64,000 nucleotides of DNA from Candidatus Magasanikiibacteriota bacterium (GCA_014729395.1 WJJZ01000010.1:23901-87900), one strand, 5' to 3'. Counted from the stretch's first letter, positions 518 through 61,660 are shown. The notes: generated by a model from the letters alone, not told the origin. A program made the numbers and translations.

Positions 518-2083
518 CTACTCTATAGCTTTTTTAATTTGTAATGCAATCGATTTTACTACTGGCACACTGACTGAATTTCCAAACTGTTTATATAGCG
601 CAGAATCAGACATATTCTTTGGCAGTTTAAAATCCATTGGAAATCCTTGAATTCTGGCACATTCAAGTGGTGTTAGTTTTCTAATTCCTTTTTTATCTCT
701 GATGATTGGAACATTGTGCCCTCCCATACCCATGTTAGCCGTAAGTGTCGGACAGACTCCTTTTTTATTTTCACGCACATATTTTCTTCGCCACTGGTAT
801 ACCGTTTCTCTGCTTTTAACTTCATCTTTTAACTTTTCATAAAGTGGTTTTCCATTATAATAGTATTTTTCATCCACTTTTTCTTCAAGTAAATCAGTGA
901 TTTTTTTTGTAAGTTTCACAGTGCCAGGAAAGTTAAATTTTTCATAGTGTTTTTTATCCTTGAAGCCAACAATATAAATTCTTTCCCTATTTTGAGGAAC
1001 ATTCCCATATTCCATGCTATTCAAAACTTTTGATTTTACATGATAACCAAGATCTTCAAGTGTCTCTAATATGATTCTAAATGTTTTTCCCTTATCATGT
1101 CCTTTTAGATTTTTCACATTTTCAAGCATAAACCCCATTGGCTGTTTTTCTTTCAAAATACGAGCAACATCATAAAACAAATTTCCCCTCCCTTTTTCAT
1201 CATCAAACCCCTGTCTATAACCAGCAATCGAGAAAGCTTGACATGGAAATCCCCCGAGTAAAAAATCAAAATCAGGAAGTTTTTTTTCATTTATCTTTTG
1301 TATATCCTCAACGAACAATTTTGTTCCATCAAAATTTAAATCATACGTATCTTTACATTGTGATTCAAAATCATTTGCAAAAACAGTTTCAAAACCAGCT
1401 TCTTCAAAACCTAACCTTATTCCCCCCACTCCTGCAAATAAATCGATTGTTTTGAAAAGTTTTGTTTTTGGTAACTGTTTTCCAAAATCTCTAATAATTT
1501 TTACTACAACCCCTTGTACTTCAACTTCTTTACGAAACATCGGTAACAAATTTTGATTTGCTGGTTGCAGTCTAAATTTATTTTTTTCACGGTATATTTT
1601 TTTAAGCGTCGCCTCATCTTTATCTATCAAAGCAACAACGGTCTGTCCATTGTCAGCAGAATCTTGTTTCTTTAAAACTACAACATCACCATCAAAAATT
1701 CCATCTTCAACCATACTATCACCGGCAACTCTCAAAGCGTATAGTTGTTCTGGATCAAAATAAGTATCTCTAGCTATGTTAATAGTTTCGCCCTTCGTCT
1801 CAAGAGCTTCAATTGGCTGACCAGCAGCGATTGTACCAACAAGTGGAATATCTATAGAATCCACTTTACCAGGTTTTCTGACACCAAGACCCCGTGTGGC
1901 ATTTTCATCTTTAGTAATGTATCCTTTTTCGATCAACGCATTTACATGTTGATAAACACCCGACAAGGCCTTCAACTTTAGATGTTTCCTCAACTCCTCA
2001 AAAGTTGGCGAGAAACCTTTTTTTTCTATAAATGACTCGATGTAATCTAAAATTTGTTTTTGTCTTTTTGTAAGATTTGGCAT
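518..2083 (-). CDS. LexA-like repressor (wHTH + S24 self-cleaving peptidase) fused to DNA (cytosine-5)-methyltransferase
   Basis: Residues 1-200 align end-to-end with LexA: LTKRQ..GYI wHTH, IPLVGTIAAGQPI with the Ala-Gly site, GDSM Ser and ATLKK Lys. Residues 205-521 carry C5-MTase motif I DLFAGVGG, IV GFPCQAFS, VI ENV, VIII QNRER and X GNSVSV. Confidence 0.85.
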   Translation of the reverse strand: MPNLTKRQKQILDYIESFIEKKGFSPTFEELRKHLKLKALSGVYQHVNALIEKGYITKDENATRGLGVRKPGKVDSIDIPLVGTIAAGQPIEALETKGETINIARDTYFDPEQLYALRVAGDSMVEDGIFDGDVVVLKKQDSADNGQTVVALIDKDEATLKKIYREKNKFRLQPANQNLLPMFRKEVEVQGVVVKIIRDFGKQLPKTKLFKTIDLFAGVGGIRLGFEEAGFETVFANDFESQCKDTYDLNFDGTKLFVEDIQKINEKKLPDFDFLLGGFPCQAFSIAGYRQGFDDEKGRGNLFYDVARILKEKQPMGFMLENVKNLKGHDKGKTFRIILETLEDLGYHVKSKVLNSMEYGNVPQNRERIYIVGFKDKKHYEKFNFPGTVKLTKKITDLLEEKVDEKYYYNGKPLYEKLKDEVKSRETVYQWRRKYVRENKKGVCPTLTANMGMGGHNVPIIRDKKGIRKLTPLECARIQGFPMDFKLPKNMSDSALYKQFGNSVSVPVVKSIALQIKKAIE

Positions 2084-4503: not shown

Positions 4504-4992
4504 ATGAACGAAAAAAACTCTGAATGTTGTCCAAAATTTAACCCTGAAAAATGGGATGAAAAAACATTCAACTGGGATAATAAAAAATTTATAAAAGAAA
4601 GCCTGCCGACCTTTTTCCATATGCCTTTTCCACCCATGATCGCCAAAAAAATAACCAAAATGTGGAAAATGGCGGAAAAAGCCCAAAAAACCGAAGAAAA
4701 CAAAGAAGATGTTTTGATTTTATTTACAGATCCGCATCCTTTTAAATCGGAAATGTATTTATCTGTAACAGGTGAAGTGCCGCAGGCAAACAACACAGAA
4801 ATTTCCGGGAATTTTATTGCCAAAGTCTTTGACGGCCAATACAACGCCATCCCAAAATTTATGAAAGAAATGAACGAGTACCTGGATAAAAAAGGCAAAA
4901 AGGCAAAAAAATATTATATTCATTATGCTTATTGCCCCAAGTGTGCCAAAAAATTCGGCAATAATTATATGATCTTATTTGCTCAAGTTTAA
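4504..4992 (+). CDS. Hypothetical Cys-rich protein (paired CC..CPKC, possible Zn site)
   Basis: ORF with N-terminal ECCPKF and C-terminal YCPKCAKKF; no family recognised. Confidence 0.35.
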   Translation: MNEKNSECCPKFNPEKWDEKTFNWDNKKFIKESLPTFFHMPFPPMIAKKITKMWKMAEKAQKTEENKEDVLILFTDPHPFKSEMYLSVTGEVPQANNTEISGNFIAKVFDGQYNAIPKFMKEMNEYLDKKGKKAKKYYIHYAYCPKCAKKFGNNYMILFAQV

Positions 4993-4995
4993 AAT

Positions 4996-5376
4996 ATGAA
5001 AAAAATCACAAAAATTGCAGTTATCTTATCTATAGTTATAATTTCCGTAGTTGTAATTTTAAGAATTGGATCTTTTATGTCTCACCAAGCTCCTGTCGGA
5101 GGCAAATTTATATCACAAGTAGGTAGCGATACTCATGTTTATAACATGACTCAAAAAGAAATCGGCTCTCTACATAGTGATTATATGTGGCAAAGCCTGG
5201 TTCGGGGAATGCCCGGTTTTTTTCAATTGTGGACAAAATACAATATCAAGCGCATTGAAATACTTGATATCAATTTTGATGATGAAAATAACTGTGGCTT
5301 TTTTCATGTCAACACTTATACTAGATTCAATCGCCTAAAATCTGATAATCTGAGAGTTAGTGAACCCTGTCCATAA
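4996..5376 (+). CDS. Hypothetical protein with N-terminal transmembrane anchor
   Basis: ORF with hydrophobic N-terminus IAVILSIVIISVVVIL. Confidence 0.35.
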   Translation: MKKITKIAVILSIVIISVVVILRIGSFMSHQAPVGGKFISQVGSDTHVYNMTQKEIGSLHSDYMWQSLVRGMPGFFQLWTKYNIKRIEILDINFDDENNCGFFHVNTYTRFNRLKSDNLRVSEPCP

Positions 5377-5533
5377 GAATAACTTATTAAATTAGATAGC
5401 AGCAATTATCCGGAGAAATAAATGATAAATTCTTGTTTATTTTAAACACTTTAATTGAGCTTTTTCTATTTTTCTTTCATAAAAAAAGAATCCCCCGCAG
5501 TGTTTACAGTACCACGGGGGATGTTTATTTGAG

Positions 5534-5561
5534 CGGCCTCCTTTTTTTTTGGCCGTTTTTT
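5534..5561 (+). terminator. Hairpin CGGCC..GGCCG followed by a T-run
   Basis: cggcctcctttttttttggccgtttttt; downstream of the + gene ending at 5376. Confidence 0.35.
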
Positions 5562-5563
5562 GT

Positions 5564-5700
5564 AAAAAAAGGGCCCGCAGGCCCTTGTTAGCGCCGTAGC
5601 GTGCCCCTTTTTGCCTTCATAAAGGCGAGGCGGGACGGTGCGACCATCACCAAGAACCTCAACCATTAGTAAGATAACTATAGCATAAAAATCATTTTTT
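5564..5700 (-). ncRNA. Candidate structured small RNA, minus strand, unassigned family
   Basis: GC-rich stretch in an AT-rich genome containing stems GGUG..CACC, GCCUU..AAGGC and GCGC..GGCGC. It ends in a minus-strand intrinsic terminator (GGGCCUGCGGGCCC + U7 at 5584-5564). A second minus-strand terminator (CCCCCG..CGGGGG + AUUCUUUUUUU) sits at 5520-5482. Confidence 0.25.
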
Positions 5701-5865
5701 GTCAAGGTCCTACACCCTATGAACCAAAAACTTCTCAAATAATGCAATAAATGTAAATTTAACACCATAAAACAGTCGATATGCGATTTATCTTTGACTC
5801 GCTACTTTCGCCCGGATTTACTTAAATTTTGATTAATTTTTCGGTGTCGGCTATACTGAAATAAT

Positions 5866-6432
5866 ATGAAAAAACATTTTTTCAACAAAGCATTGCGAGT
5901 ATTATTATCAACCAATGCCATGATTTTGCTAGCTGCCGCCATGTTGGGTCCGATTTATGCACTTTTTGTAACGGAAATCGGTGGTGATTTAATGGACGCA
6001 AGTATTGCCGGAGGTATCTTTGCCTTTGTTGCCGGTCTTGTAACATTAATTTCAGGGAAATATAGTGATAGAGTAAAAGAAAACGAACTTATAGTTGTGT
6101 TGGGATATTTTATTATGGGATTGGGTTTTTTACTATATTTCTGGGTATCTTCAATAATCTTTTTATTTATTGTTCAGGCAATTATCGGTCTCGGAGAGGC
6201 AATTTACTCACCTGCTTTTGATGCTGTATATTCCAAACACATTGACGGACATAAATCCGGAACCCAGTGGGGAGTTTGGGAATCCATGAATTACTTTGCA
6301 ACCGCAATTGGGGCGGTGGTAGGCGGGGGCTTGGCCACGTTATTCGGCTTTAGAGCATTATTTATTATAATGGCAATACTCTGCTTTAGCAGTGGATTGT
6401 ATATTTATAGATTAAAGCGTAGTGTATTATAA
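5866..6432 (+). CDS. MFS-type half-size (about 6 TM) transporter
   Basis: Hydrophobic helices throughout; the MFS motif-A-like GKYSDRV loop lies between TM2 and TM3. Confidence 0.45.
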   Translation: MKKHFFNKALRVLLSTNAMILLAAAMLGPIYALFVTEIGGDLMDASIAGGIFAFVAGLVTLISGKYSDRVKENELIVVLGYFIMGLGFLLYFWVSSIIFLFIVQAIIGLGEAIYSPAFDAVYSKHIDGHKSGTQWGVWESMNYFATAIGAVVGGGLATLFGFRALFIIMAILCFSSGLYIYRLKRSVL

Positions 6433-19513: not shown

Positions 19514-19544
19514 TAAAAAACCGCTCTGTAGAGCGGTTTATTTT
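19514..19544 (-). terminator. Intrinsic terminator (ACCGCUC-UACA-GAGCGGU + U-run)
   Basis: Downstream of the minus gene ending at 19547. Confidence 0.5.
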
Positions 19545-21148: not shown

Positions 21149-21219
21149 CTCGGGAGCAGGGATTTGAACCCCGATAGCCAGGACCAGAACCTGGAGTCCT
21201 ACCATTAGACGACTCCCGA
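21149..21219 (-). tRNA. tRNA-Gln (anticodon CUG)
   Basis: Hand-folded cloverleaf with 7-bp acceptor UCGGGAG/CUCCCGA, D-arm GUCU/GGAC, anticodon stem CCAGG/CCUGG with loop UUCUGGU, T-arm CGGGG-UUCAAAU-CCCUG and discriminator G; CCA is not encoded. Confidence 0.75.
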
Positions 21220-25589: not shown

Positions 25590-25828
25590 ACTTACCTGTG
25601 GAAGTTGGGTTAAATTCCCACACTGTGCCGCAACGGTAATCCGTCTTCGTCACGCTTTGAAGTGACTATACCGGACAAGATCTCATCTCACTGGGACTTG
25701 ACCGGGCAGCCCTATACAAAGTTTAGGGTGAAGTCGGGAGTCCGGTCTTCAGATAAGTTAATTGATCCTCTGGATCAATCCCGAGCAGGATATATATACA
25801 CACAACTTGCCTTCCGGGAAGTTTTTTA
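25590..25828 (+). promoter_or_regulatory. Candidate cobalamin riboswitch-like leader with intrinsic terminator expression platform
   Basis: GC-rich 240 nt in an AT-rich genome. Resembles the cobalamin core: GGUUAAAUUCC (cf. GGUGnnAAUCC), CACACUGU / CUCACUGGGA (cf. GCCACUG) and GACUUGACCGGGCAGCC (B12-box-like). Ends in hairpin AACUUGCCUUCCGGGAAGUU + U6 (25804-25827), 25 nt before the ATG at 25851. Downstream genes are DUF4430 and alpha/alpha-toroid proteins. Confidence 0.35.
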
Positions 25829-25850: not shown

Positions 25851-26519
25851 ATGATCAAAAAATTTATTCAAAATAATAAATTTACATTGTTCATTTGGTT
25901 TAGCATGTTAATTTTAATGTTTGTAACAGGATATTATACTTATGAGGATAAAATTAACTTTTACAAAGCTCTTTCAAAAATAAATATAGAAGCTAAAAGT
26001 ATACAAAACTCTATACAAAATATAGAAATAGACAAAAATTCAGAAAATGCTCTTTTAGAAAATAATTTAGATGAAAGTAGCTCTTATCTTAAGCCATCCT
26101 CAACGAAAGTATACACTACTGTAGACAATTTTAAGATATCACAGGATGGTTCTGTTGCTACAAGTAATCCAAAAACAAACAATAATACAGAAAATAAGAC
26201 AAATCTTACATCCACTGAAAATTTGTCTATCACTCTCAAGGTCAATAATAAACAATATTTGGCTAAACTAAACAACAGCAGTACTGTATACGATCTAATG
26301 GAACACTTGCAAGAAGAAAGTGATTTTAAATTTAGTGGAGTTGAGTATGATTATTTAGGCTTTTTCGTTGAGTCTATAGCGAATATAAAAAATGATCCTT
26401 ACACCGGAAAATATTGGATATACTATGTAAACAATAAAAAAGCGACCATGGGCATATCCAATAGGCTATTAAAAAATAATGACGTAATCGAATGGAAATA
26501 TGAACAAGAGGAACTATAA
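25851..26519 (+). CDS. DUF4430-domain protein (beta-domain like that of transcobalamin/intrinsic factor), N-terminal TM anchor
   Basis: C-terminal 80 aa (LKVNNKQY..YWIYYVNNKKATMGIS..NNDVIEWKYE) fit the DUF4430 beta-grasp pattern; N-terminal TM helix. Confidence 0.5.
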   Translation: MIKKFIQNNKFTLFIWFSMLILMFVTGYYTYEDKINFYKALSKINIEAKSIQNSIQNIEIDKNSENALLENNLDESSSYLKPSSTKVYTTVDNFKISQDGSVATSNPKTNNNTENKTNLTSTENLSITLKVNNKQYLAKLNNSSTVYDLMEHLQEESDFKFSGVEYDYLGFFVESIANIKNDPYTGKYWIYYVNNKKATMGISNRLLKNNDVIEWKYEQEEL

Positions 26520-28989: not shown

Positions 28990-29541
28990 TTGTCTTTAAT
29001 AAATATGTTCGATAAAACAAATATTTGGATTATGGTGGCACTGCTTATGTTACTTGGTTTCGCAACCAGATTACTGCCCCATCCACCAAATTTCACACCG
29101 ATAGCGGCAATAGCCATTTTTGGAGGTTTGTATTTACCAAAATACTTGTCTGTTGTAATTCCCATTGCGGTGATGCTGGTTGGAGATATAGTTATTGGAT
29201 TTTATAATCCCTACGTTATGATATCGGTCTATGTAGGCTTTATATTATGTGTTGTATTAGCCTTGATTATTCGTAAAAAGAAAAAAATTCACTACATACT
29301 TGGTACAACCGTCTTCGGATCCATATTATTTTTTTTACTTACGAATATGGCTGTATGGGCTTTTGGTACACTCTATCCACATAGTTTGGCAGGATTGATA
29401 GAGAGCTATACCATGGCCATTCCTTTTTTTAGGAATAGTTTGTTGGGAGACTTGTTTTATGTAGGTGTGCTGGTTGGTGGATTTGAAACGGTCAAATATT
29501 TTTTGTTAAATAATAAAAAAATAGAGCAAAAAATAATCTGA
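28990..29541 (+). CDS. Small polytopic membrane protein (5-6 TM), ECF S-component/BtuM-like candidate
   Basis: 183 aa with LLPHPPNFTPIAAIAIFGG followed by 4-5 further TM helices; last gene of the putative operon before the terminator. Confidence 0.4.
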   Translation: MSLINMFDKTNIWIMVALLMLLGFATRLLPHPPNFTPIAAIAIFGGLYLPKYLSVVIPIAVMLVGDIVIGFYNPYVMISVYVGFILCVVLALIIRKKKKIHYILGTTVFGSILFFLLTNMAVWAFGTLYPHSLAGLIESYTMAIPFFRNSLLGDLFYVGVLVGGFETVKYFLLNNKKIEQKII

Positions 29542-29566
29542 TCTAAAAAAAATAAGAATAAAAAAA

Positions 29567-29604
29567 CCCCGGACCAGTGAAATGGTGCGGGGTTTGTGGT
29601 TTTT
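29567..29604. terminator. Bidirectional intrinsic terminator (CCCCG..CGGGG flanked by A7 and U-run)
   Basis: aaaaaaaccccggaccagtgaaatggtgcggggtttgtggttttt between convergent genes. Confidence 0.6.
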
Positions 29605-29621
29605 GTATCTTTCACACCTCC

Positions 29622-29819
29622 TTACTTTGTACCAAGGAAACCAGGCCAACCGCCCTTTTTCTTCCAAACATCTGAATAGGTTTGGTGTGGACCAGACGGG
29701 AGACGGAGGTCCTGTTTGTAGCCTTTGATATATCCTCTAGAGGTTTTAAACCCCAAAGCCTGGGCAGCTTTGGAAGCTTCTTCCCAAGTTTCGTAGAAAC
29801 TAATTATTTTTTTACCCAA
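29622..29819 (-). pseudogene. Frameshift-separated fourth copy of the helicase C-terminal repeat
   Basis: Encodes GKKIISFYETWEEASKAAQALGFKT..GGWPGFLG, identical in pattern to repeats 1-3 of the upstream helicase. Separated by a +1 frameshift in a G3 (vs G2) run near 29835. Confidence 0.5.
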
Positions 29820-31392
29820 GAAACCAGGCCAACCGCCCTTTTTCTTTCCAGACCTCGGAGTAACTATTATTCGGGTCAGATGGAAGACGGAGGTCTTTTC
29901 TGTAGTGTTCTTGGTATTCTGTTTTAGTTTTAAACCCCAAAGCCTGGGCAGCTTTGGAAGCTTCTTCCCAGGTTTCGTAGAAACTAATTATCTTCTTACC
30001 CAAGAAACCAGGCCAACCGCCTTTTTCTTTCCAGACCTCGGAGTAACTCTTATTCGGGTAAGATGGAAGACGGAGGTCTTTTCTGTAGTGTTCTTTGTAT
30101 TCTGTTACAGTTTTAAACCCCAAAGCTTGTGCAGCTTTGGAGGCTTCTTCCCAGGTAGGGTAGAAATTCCGAGACAGCATAACATCAACATAGTCGAGAA
30201 TCCCGACAACCTCTTCCAAGTACTCATCATAGAACACCTTAAAGCCGGTTGAGACCTCTCTCACATCGGTGTCATAATCATCCCGAAGGCCGACAGAAAC
30301 CAGCTGTCCGATGAATTCCAAGCGCCGGTAGGTGCCGACAAAGTCCATGACAACCACTTTTTGCTTGTCTCTGGTCTTGCGCAGACCTCGACCGAGCTGC
30401 TGGTACCAGACTACGGCGCTTCTGGTTGAACGCAGGAAGACGATCAGGTCAACAGTGGGGATGTCAATTGCTTCATTGAACATATCCACCGTGAGTAGTG
30501 TCCGAATCTCTCCTCTTTGAAACGCTTGGAAGCGCTCTTTGAGAGTCTTTGTCTTGAGGCCCGAATGGTATGACACAGCCTCGGGAAAGTATTTGTTGAC
30601 TCTCCTAAGGTGGCTGATCGAACGACAGAAAATGACCGCCTGTTTGTCAGCAACCGACTGCTCGGCTTTGACAGTTTCGGCAATCGCTTCCAGTTTTTCA
30701 ACTAGAAAGAGATTTTTGTCAAGTTTTGTCTTTGAAATGGAGCGGTCCTCTTGCCTGACTCTCTCGATGAGATCTTGTATAACCTCTCTTGAGATGTTGT
30801 CGGTCAAGAGCCGGTACTCCACCTCAGCCAGCCACTCGTTGTCAGCGAGTGCCTCTTTCAAGCCGTAGGAGTATACCTCGTCTCCAAAGATATCCCTGAT
30901 ATCAAGACCATCTCCCCTGAAAGGAGTAGCGGTCATACCAAGCATGAACCGGGGTGTGAAGTAGTCGATGATTTCCTTGTAGGTCTCTGCATGAGAATGA
31001 TGAGCCTCGTCTACGATGACAAGAGAAAACTCATCCTCTTCCAGCTCCCAAACAAGGCTTTCCTGCATGGTCTGAAAAGTACTAAGGAGCACCGTGGCAT
31101 CCTTATCTTCTTTGACCACGCCATTGACAATCGAGATGCCGGGCTTGTCCTCAAGACTGAAGAGAGCCTCTTCAAACTCCTGTTTGGCCTGATACAGCGG
31201 GTCGGTCATATGAAGGATAAAGAGAACTTTACCTCCATAATTTTCCAACCAATAGCGAATGATGTTGCCGGCGAGCACTGTCTTGCCCAAGCCGGAGGCC
31301 ATGGAAATTAGAACAGTTTTGAATCCACTGCTCACGGCCTCAAGGATAGCCGACTTAGCTTCTTCCTGATAAGGTCTGAGTGTTTTCATCAC
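29812..31392 (-). CDS. SF2 (DEAH/ResIII-type) helicase with C-terminal tandem 60-aa repeats
   Basis: Motif I MASGLGKT, motif II VIVDEAHH, motif III TATP, motif VI QQLGRGLR; followed by three repeats of ETWEEASKAAQALGFKT..EY..YRKDLRLPS.PN.SYSEVWKEKGGWPGFLG. Confidence 0.8.
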   Translation of the reverse strand: MMKTLRPYQEEAKSAILEAVSSGFKTVLISMASGLGKTVLAGNIIRYWLENYGGKVLFILHMTDPLYQAKQEFEEALFSLEDKPGISIVNGVVKEDKDATVLLSTFQTMQESLVWELEEDEFSLVIVDEAHHSHAETYKEIIDYFTPRFMLGMTATPFRGDGLDIRDIFGDEVYSYGLKEALADNEWLAEVEYRLLTDNISREVIQDLIERVRQEDRSISKTKLDKNLFLVEKLEAIAETVKAEQSVADKQAVIFCRSISHLRRVNKYFPEAVSYHSGLKTKTLKERFQAFQRGEIRTLLTVDMFNEAIDIPTVDLIVFLRSTRSAVVWYQQLGRGLRKTRDKQKVVVMDFVGTYRRLEFIGQLVSVGLRDDYDTDVREVSTGFKVFYDEYLEEVVGILDYVDVMLSRNFYPTWEEASKAAQALGFKTVTEYKEHYRKDLRLPSYPNKSYSEVWKEKGGWPGFLGKKIISFYETWEEASKAAQALGFKTKTEYQEHYRKDLRLPSDPNNSYSEVWKEKGRLAWFLG

Positions 31393-33161: not shown

Positions 33162-33215
33162 AAATACTTTTTTTATATAAAAAAACAAAAACCCCTCCGT
33201 GAGGAGGTAGTTTTA

Positions 33216-56913: not shown

Positions 56914-57642
56914 TCAAGCCGCCCAGCTCTCGTTAAGAGCTTTTTGGGCGGCATGGCGGACTTCGCCACAAAGACCTACACACCCGTACAGGTTTGCCTG
57001 TTCAGGTGAAAGATCCCCCGGGTCAGACCCGGTGAAGTCAGCCCACCTCAAGTCAACATTGATAAATGTTGCAGACCCGAGGTGTGAATTGAAAAAACTT
57101 GTTGACCGGAGCGTCGTCATCACGAAATCGACGCTTTCAAGGCAAGCCCTGAAAAACTCAACTTCGATCATACTGCTCTCCTGGAATTTCGCGTGCCCCA
57201 ATAGGGCCTCTGCGAAATTGCTCCGCGAGAGTTCGCAATTTAGAAAATTGCAAAACTCCAAATTGGATTTTGACAAATTTGCATTTAGCAGGTTGCAATT
57301 CACAAAGGAACTGCCCTGCAAATTAGCACCCCCTAAATTGACACTGCGCAAGTTTACTGACTCAAAATTTAATCCGCTTAGATCAACCCACTCCAGATTG
57401 ATCCCTACGAGACAAACACTCGAAATGTCAAGGCGAAAAATTTCACCATAATCTTCCAGACTTTTTCTCCAACGGTTGAACTCCTCGACCATCCCATTCT
57501 TGAGGAAATGGAGGGCCTTTCGGGAATTCGTCCAGCGATGGATTGTAGCTATAGTGACGATAATCCAAGTTTTCAAAAGGGTCATGTCTTCCTCCTTGTT
57601 TTGTTGTTTTGAAATAACAAATGACTGTAAATAATAGCACAA
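56914..57642 (-). CDS. Pentapeptide-repeat protein (paralog of 56035-56721)
   Basis: Pentapeptide repeats (VNLRSVNLGGANLQGSSFVNCNLLNANLSKSNLEFCNF); GC-rich; start may be at MTLLKTW (about 57585). Confidence 0.75.
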   Translation of the reverse strand: MCYYLQSFVISKQQNKEEDMTLLKTWIIVTIATIHRWTNSRKALHFLKNGMVEEFNRWRKSLEDYGEIFRLDISSVCLVGINLEWVDLSGLNFESVNLRSVNLGGANLQGSSFVNCNLLNANLSKSNLEFCNFLNCELSRSNFAEALLGHAKFQESSMIEVEFFRACLESVDFVMTTLRSTSFFNSHLGSATFINVDLRWADFTGSDPGDLSPEQANLYGCVGLCGEVRHAAQKALNESWAA

Positions 57643-61609: not shown

Positions 61610-61620
61610 AAAAAGTAAAA

Positions 61621-61660
61621 ACCGTTGCAGTACAACGGTTTTATTATTACTCTTTTATTT
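61621..61660. terminator. Bidirectional intrinsic terminator (AACCGUUG-CAGUA-CAACGGUU with U-runs both sides)
   Basis: Between convergent recR and rplU. Confidence 0.6.

Follow-up and report, generated by a model that had tools for sequence, protein, structure and literature searches.

The sequence analysed comes from a metagenome-assembled genome of Candidatus Magasanikbacteria (Patescibacteria/CPR); we refer to the whole 64-kb stretch as the window. The locus described here is a 489-nt gap with a plus-strand gene on either side. The flanking proteins are NCBI MBD3311429-32 (GF349_02960-02975), encoded on a contig of 295,853 bp. The features of the gap and its borders are as follows, with positions counted from the first letter of the window:

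4504-4992, plus strand: Bact_hydrolase gene, the first gene of a two-gene unit (operon 4504-5376)
4996-5376, plus strand: ORFan gene of 126 aa, the last gene of the operon 4504-5376
5466-5768, minus strand: annotated hypothetical protein GF349_02965 (MBD3311430.1), 100 aa, from the NCBI annotation
5482-5530, both strands: T1, predicted bidirectional terminator, stronger on the minus strand
5531-5561, plus strand: T2, predicted intrinsic terminator of the 4504-5376 operon, GAGCGGCC-N12-GGCCGUUU with a U-run ending at 5561
5562-5586, minus strand: T3, predicted intrinsic terminator in the minus orientation only, AAGGGCC-UGCG-GGCCCUU followed by a U-run; predicted 3' end of a small RNA
5587-5670, minus strand: predicted body of the small RNA, about 62% GC, with modelled hairpins P1, P2 and a small cUACGg hairpin
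5592-5601, minus strand: small cUACGg hairpin, RNAfold model
5613-5626, minus strand: P2, GCCUU-UAUG-AAGGC, RNAfold model
5627-5660, minus strand: P1, an interrupted hairpin, RNAfold model
5705-5677, minus strand: candidate sigma-70-type extended -10 promoter, TTGACA (5705-5700), a 17-nt spacer and TGcTATAGT
5866-6432, plus strand: half-size MFS transporter gene, 188 aa, the downstream flank of the gap

No relative of the 126-aa neighbor was found among GTDB genomes, among JGI metagenomes or in a set of 5.8 billion proteins. The hydrolase has relatives across phyla at about 70-76% identity, and in the one relative examined (P0006, six contigs) the gene context is unrelated. The half-MFS gene is 56-83% identical to genes in MAGs labelled Nomurabacteria, Saccharibacteria, Peribacteria, Gammaproteobacteria, Methanosarcinales and Woesearchaeota, and in its relatives, drawn from 11 genomes, similarity ends exactly at the gene borders. 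Hence, this gene looks like a widely transferred single-gene unit, and the hydrolase shows the same pattern; taken as a pair, the two recur at 60-82% identity in unrelated phyla and in archaea. The 11 genomes have nothing in common upstream of the MFS gene; one weak upstream match, in a Nomurabacteria MAG (L001), is a near-identical consensus promoter that precedes an 82-aa gene. At 90% clustering, each of the four local proteins is a singleton, which indicates that no close relative of this genome is among the collections searched.

We note two observations on the upstream side of the gap. At 5202-5224 on the plus strand, the 126-aa ORFan contains a terminator-like hairpin and a T7 run (TCGGGGAATGCCCGG TTTTTTT); it could serve operon attenuation, or it could indicate that the ORFan is not a real gene. 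Between that gene and T1, plus-strand positions 5423-5446 hold a 7-codon mini-ORF, ATGATAAATTCTTGTTTATTTTAA, with a GGAG ahead of it at a 6-nt spacer (GGAGAAATAAATG). Shine-Dalgarno-like motifs such as this GGAG are very scarce in the window, and the mini-ORF may be due to chance.

Mean GC content in the window is 35%, with a standard deviation of 7% in 100-nt windows, and positions 5530-5682 reach 60% over 100 nt. The window has 27 intergenic regions that measure 80 nt or more; ranked by their 80-nt GC peak, the three highest are (i) the gap, at 0.65; (ii) the tRNA-Gln region, at 0.59; and (iii) an island at 25600-25742, probably a cobalamin riboswitch, at 0.55. A first-pass annotation of this DNA had pointed out the elevated GC and three strong hairpins within it, and all three are present: CCCCCG (5492-5497) faces CGGGGG (5515-5520) across 17 nt; CGGCC (5534-5538) faces GGCCG (5551-5555) across 12 nt and is followed by T6 (5556-5561); and GGGCC-CGCA-GGCCC occupies 5571-5584. 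Each of them folds beyond its shuffles. All hairpin z-scores given here are relative to dinucleotide shuffles, with the two strands folded separately. Over a 251-nt region the minus strand folds at -87.6 kcal/mol (z = -4.5), versus -75.6 kcal/mol (z = -3.5) for the plus strand, and the 40-nt windows 5569-5608 and 5485-5524 are the third and fifth strongest minus-strand folds in the whole window. A simple terminator search returned 15 terminator-like sites in the 64 kb, four of which fall within 5490-5585.

The same annotation read two of the hairpins as intrinsic terminators of the minus strand, and their minus-strand tails are U7 (the complement of 5564-5570) and AUUCUUUUUUU (the complement of 5481-5491), as it had written them. 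In T1 (hairpin at 5482-5522), a GC-rich stem is preceded by an A-run and followed by a T-rich run. Read as the minus strand, T1 forms a 12-bp stem that includes G-U pairs (-19.6 kcal/mol, z = -4.4), followed by UUCUUUUUUU; on the plus strand it forms 8+3 bp (-16.0 kcal/mol, z = -3.4), followed by UGUUUAUUU. T2 (hairpin at 5533-5561) folds at -12.2 kcal/mol (z = -4.2) on the plus strand with U6 after it, and at -8.3 kcal/mol without a U-tract on the minus strand. T3 has a minus-strand stem of 7 bp, five of them G-C, closed by a UGCG loop (-13.6 kcal/mol, z = -3.7); its plus-strand tail, UUGUUAGC, is a poor U-tract. By its sequence, the locus is a convergent transcription junction with three intrinsic terminators.

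These strand preferences divide what had been presented as one element. T2 is the predicted terminator of the plus-strand operon and T1 is common to both strands, so only T3 can be assigned to the minus strand alone. Folding well on both strands, T1 resembles the bidirectional terminators of convergent genes, as do sites in the window at 19518-19539, 33192-33207 and 61618-61642. In contrast to such terminators, T3 is one-directional and has no annotated gene to terminate. It is alone among the 15 sites in that it neither follows a same-strand gene nor forms the reverse face of a hairpin that does. We reasoned that, as the single exception among the intergenic terminators of the window, T3 points to some minus-strand transcript that is terminated here.

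The first-pass annotation had likewise proposed a minus-strand transcript ending at this place, and besides the orphan T3 the proposal gains support from a promoter-like site on the same strand at 5705-5677. Its TG lies at 5685-5684 and its -10 hexamer at 5682-5677, and it scores 11/12 with the TG in addition. Sites scoring at least 11/12 number nine in the window, versus 3.45 +/- 2.0 in first-order Markov simulations; those that also carry the TG number two, against 0.27 expected. Five of the eight other sites precede the start of a same-strand ORF by no more than about 100 nt, with starts at 2176, 3533, 7633 (an unannotated 165-aa ORF), 46632 (minus) and 57642 (minus), which suggests that this consensus is used in the organism. 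The second TG-bearing site precedes a pentapeptide-repeat gene at 56914-57642. The distance from the promoter to T3 on the minus strand is about 108 nt. The site is a consensus match and, on our reading, would fire.

Taken together, these sequence features lend good support to a minus-strand transcription unit. Transcription would start at an A at 5670, 7 nt past the -10 hexamer of the extended -10 promoter, cross about 84 nt of GC-rich sequence and end at T3 (about 5562), giving a product of about 105 nt. T1 would act as a back-up stop for this small RNA, with a read-through product of about 185 nt, and the plus-strand operon 4504-5376 would stop at T1 first and then at T2. The predicted start at 5670 is where the GC-rich sequence begins, and the T3 end at about 5562 is where it stops. 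In sequence, the unit has two marks of a small-RNA gene: (i) its own promoter on the same strand, and (ii) a same-strand Rho-independent terminator within about 50-300 nt. We put the probability that the GC-rich stretch is a genuine non-coding RNA gene, about 105 nt long and a singleton, at roughly 55%; the exact ends of the RNA, and its having a function, are what we infer from these features.

Folded as a 110-nt transcript that includes T3, the candidate reaches -46.4 kcal/mol (z = -3.3). This signal is confined to the terminators. Taken by itself, the body (5587-5671, minus strand) is no more stable than composition-matched shuffles (z = -0.39, with 61 of 200 shuffled sequences equalling or surpassing it), and its stability exceeds that of genome-typical sequence only because it is GC-rich, so that GC content is the sole signal of the body. 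The further stems that the first-pass annotation had listed at 5590-5700 thus do not stand out from chance. One string that it gave there, GCGCUACGGCGC, is in fact ACGCUACGGCGC, with a 3-bp CGC/GCG stem and a UACG loop. Modelled hairpin P1 contains two G-U pairs that become A-C mismatches on the plus strand, which favors the minus strand.

What such an RNA might do can be suggested with low confidence only. It may be a trans-acting regulatory or protein-binding RNA that works through its unpaired 5' tail (UACUAAUGGUU) and an A-rich linker (AAAAAGGGG), and we speculate that the high GC content would favor a protein-binding or scaffold role over that of a classic seed-pairing small RNA. When the small RNA was scanned for base-pairing targets against 59 translation-initiation regions of the window, its best energy (-37.4) was no better than that of shuffled RNAs (-35.0 +/- 3.1). 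Because no minus-strand gene lies downstream, the small RNA is not a leader.

We searched for known RNA families and for relatives of the element. Scanned against Rfam 15 (4227 models), the whole window contains only tRNA-Gln (21149-21219) at the gathering score, and ARAGORN likewise found only this tRNA-Gln in the window. Consistent with the first-pass annotation, which could not match the element to SRP RNA, 6S, tmRNA or RNase P RNA, none of these, nor a tRNA, appears in Rfam searches of 5350-5900 at E up to 10. The top Rfam match over the element, SpF22 sRNA, scores 18.8 bits versus a gathering score of 55 and aligns to the terminator hairpins only. Neither self-BLAST nor a single-sequence covariance model found a second copy in the 64-kb window, and no long inverted repeats flank the element. 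BLAST against phages and plasmids matched generic terminators only. RNA pattern searches, with one degenerate pattern for metagenome contigs and another four for viral contigs, gave 0 matches, and a covariance model run unfiltered on the window and the 11 loci of MFS relatives found no relative. This absence of homologues says little either way, because no close relative of the genome is among the collections searched.

Two origins for the gap were considered and rejected. An integron cassette array with attC sites does not fit, as several of the gaps between genes measure 3-6 nt, genes have their own promoters and no RYYYAAC/GTTRRRY cores flank the element. A tRNA or tmRNA 3'-end remnant at an island border is not indicated either, since a T-loop is absent and neither RNA gives a signal, even at E up to 10.

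Several other features of the window deserve mention. The GC-rich intergenic island at 25600-25742 (plus strand) matches the cobalamin riboswitch model RF00174 at 20.4 bits (E = 0.003), below the gathering score of 31.5. Downstream of the island are a DUF4430 gene (25851-26519), an 828-aa ORF and a DUF6580 gene (28990-29541), and the island is probably a divergent B12 riboswitch for a B12-related uptake operon, missed at the Rfam gathering threshold. At 29743-30156, a 183-nt tandem repeat is present in 2.3 copies that are 94% identical; these are INT_rpt units at the C-terminus of a ResIII/helicase gene (29812-31392, minus strand), and the repeat runs past the stop codon into the GC-rich intergenic stretch 29542-29811. 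The ResIII/helicase gene is itself unusually GC-rich (GC3 = 0.55), which suggests foreign origin. At 518-2083 (minus strand), a LexA DNA-binding domain, a Peptidase_S24 self-cleavage domain and a C-5 cytosine DNA methylase, the last of them complete, are united in one 521-aa ORF; judged by these domains, an SOS-type repressor and a methyltransferase are fused here, which is unusual. This ORF adjoins DUF3800 and Mrr restriction genes.

An account without any functional RNA is less likely. Here, the terminators would insulate the plus-strand operon from antisense or pervasive transcription, the GC-rich 84 nt would be a foreign or decayed leftover, and the promoter-like site would be fortuitous or drive a short meaningless transcript. 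Such an account is consistent with a body that folds like its shuffles, with the lack of a homologue in any search, and with neighbors that are either ORFans or single-gene units spread by horizontal transfer, with homology that ends at gene borders. Promoter-like hexamers are also common in AT-rich DNA; 12 sites scoring at least 9/12 lie within 1.2 kb. However, a site of 11/12 with a TG is expected only 0.27 times per window, yet this one stands 108 nt upstream of the only orphan terminator of a single orientation. The GC-rich stretch, moreover, exactly fills the space between the promoter and T3, and the other two GC-rich islands of the window are a tRNA and a probable riboswitch. These points count against this account.

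The gap might instead encode a small protein, either the 100-aa GF349_02965, which NCBI calls as a gene, or a shorter ORF of 66 aa. We consider this improbable. When 1.84 billion representative proteins were searched exhaustively with HMMER, the only match was GF349_02965 itself, and the protein has no Pfam match. Its reading frame starts 63 nt upstream of the -35 box of the only good promoter, crosses T3, an A9 run and T1, and reaches its stop codon (5466-5468) 16 nt beyond the T1 U-tract. Because the stop codon lies beyond both minus-strand terminators, a transcript that ended at T3 would lack one. GC content by codon position is 0.45/0.39/0.41 versus a local gene norm of about 0.45/0.31/0.27, unlike that of genes here.

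The shorter version draws on local habits of translation initiation. Shine-Dalgarno-like motifs (GGAG, GAGG or AGGA) precede only 2 of the 47 gene starts in the window, so that genes here are almost free of them. A -10-like hexamer ends 5-11 nt before the ATG at 13/47 starts, suggesting leaderless mRNAs, and at seven starts a TATAAT-like hexamer directly abuts the ATG (TAAAAT in four). With so few Shine-Dalgarno motifs and -10 boxes so near the ATG, the minus-strand ATG at 5666, which lies 10 nt after the -10 box and in frame with GF349_02965, could in principle start a near-leaderless 66-aa ORF. The 66-aa ORF, however, shares the terminator problem and the lack of homologues of the longer one: either version would have to be translated through T3 and T1 (z about -3.7 or below, each with a U-run) and through A9. 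The first-pass annotation had noted the 100-aa ORF and doubted it, and this doubt proves well founded; GF349_02965 is probably a false gene call placed over the terminators and the small-RNA candidate.

An antitoxin RNA of a type I pair, or another cis-antisense RNA, is a very improbable alternative. It would converge with a small toxin ORF on the plus strand, such as 5433-5591, or else with the 126-aa gene at its 3' end. The pairs fst/RNAII and bsrG/SR4 have a convergent arrangement with a shared bidirectional terminator, and the candidate is like such antitoxin RNAs (SR4/bsrG, RNAII/fst) in its convergent layout and shared terminators. Among the Rfam noise are weak matches to BsrG (E = 1.1) and sok (E = 4.4), and a partly hydrophobic 52-aa ORF on the plus strand (5433-5591) overlaps the terminators. 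The scores of these matches, however, are 13.0 against a gathering score of 55 for BsrG and 11.7 against 59 for sok, neither of them significant. The 52-aa ORF begins with TTG, matches no Pfam family and lacks a clear transmembrane helix, and no toxin is recognizable. T3 would halt the RNA before the plus-strand terminators, which makes a cis-antisense or type I antitoxin role unlikely. The primary transcript would be clear of the opposite one, overlapping only the last 30 nt (5562-5591) of the 52-aa ORF, and most transcripts would be antisense to nothing.

Least credible is a plus-strand cis-regulatory leader, for example a riboswitch, for the MFS gene at 5866: a GC-rich structured segment does lie about 200 nt upstream of this transporter gene and its plus-strand body has z = -1.5, but any plus-strand transcript would first have to pass T1 and T2, with no plus-strand promoter between T2 and the body, and the body is followed by neither a terminator nor a sequestering element. 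The MFS gene, moreover, carries a -10 box of its own 8 nt ahead of its ATG, and its relatives share nothing upstream, as described above.

With these alternatives weighed, we return to the stand-alone small RNA. In length (about 100 nt), intergenic position, possession of its own promoter and a 3' end made of a GC-rich hairpin and a U-run, the candidate is like Spot 42, MicF and RoxS/RsaE. The micF gene is transcribed divergently from ompC, and the candidate stands in the same relation to the transporter gene. Unlike Spot 42, MicF and RoxS/RsaE, the candidate matches no Rfam family in sequence or structure, is far GC-richer than its own genome and has no target found in the window. Many Patescibacteria are believed to lack Hfq. 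In layout, the candidate would be a stand-alone bacterial small RNA gene, one that belongs to no described RNA family.

A second comparison concerns discovery by base composition. In genomes rich in AT, GC-rich islands are an established guide to genes for non-coding RNA (PMC6429828), and the element resembles the GC-IGR/DIMPL candidates of Stav et al. 2019 (PMC6429828) in being a long GC-rich intergenic region of an AT-rich genome. In the window, the tRNA and the probable cobalamin riboswitch come out by this criterion as well. Such candidates were accepted only when many representatives showed covariation (PMC6429828); unlike those, the element in the window is a singleton, with a body no better than shuffles.

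A bolder version of the small-RNA reading is improbable. The RNA would be the founder of a lineage-specific class of structured RNAs in Patescibacteria, perhaps one that sequesters a protein or serves as a scaffold, and its apparent uniqueness would reflect the lack of sequenced close relatives. Patescibacteria have tiny genomes, and to our knowledge almost nothing is known of trans-acting RNAs in them.

As a candidate from a single genome, the element is of limited wider significance. Within the window, scans for GC content and terminators recover RNA genes, in that the tRNA, the probable B12 riboswitch and the candidate make up the top three. If the small RNA is real, the false protein annotation GF349_02965 would be corrected, and the locus would be among the very few promoter-to-terminator small RNA genes proposed for a bacterium of the Candidate Phyla Radiation.
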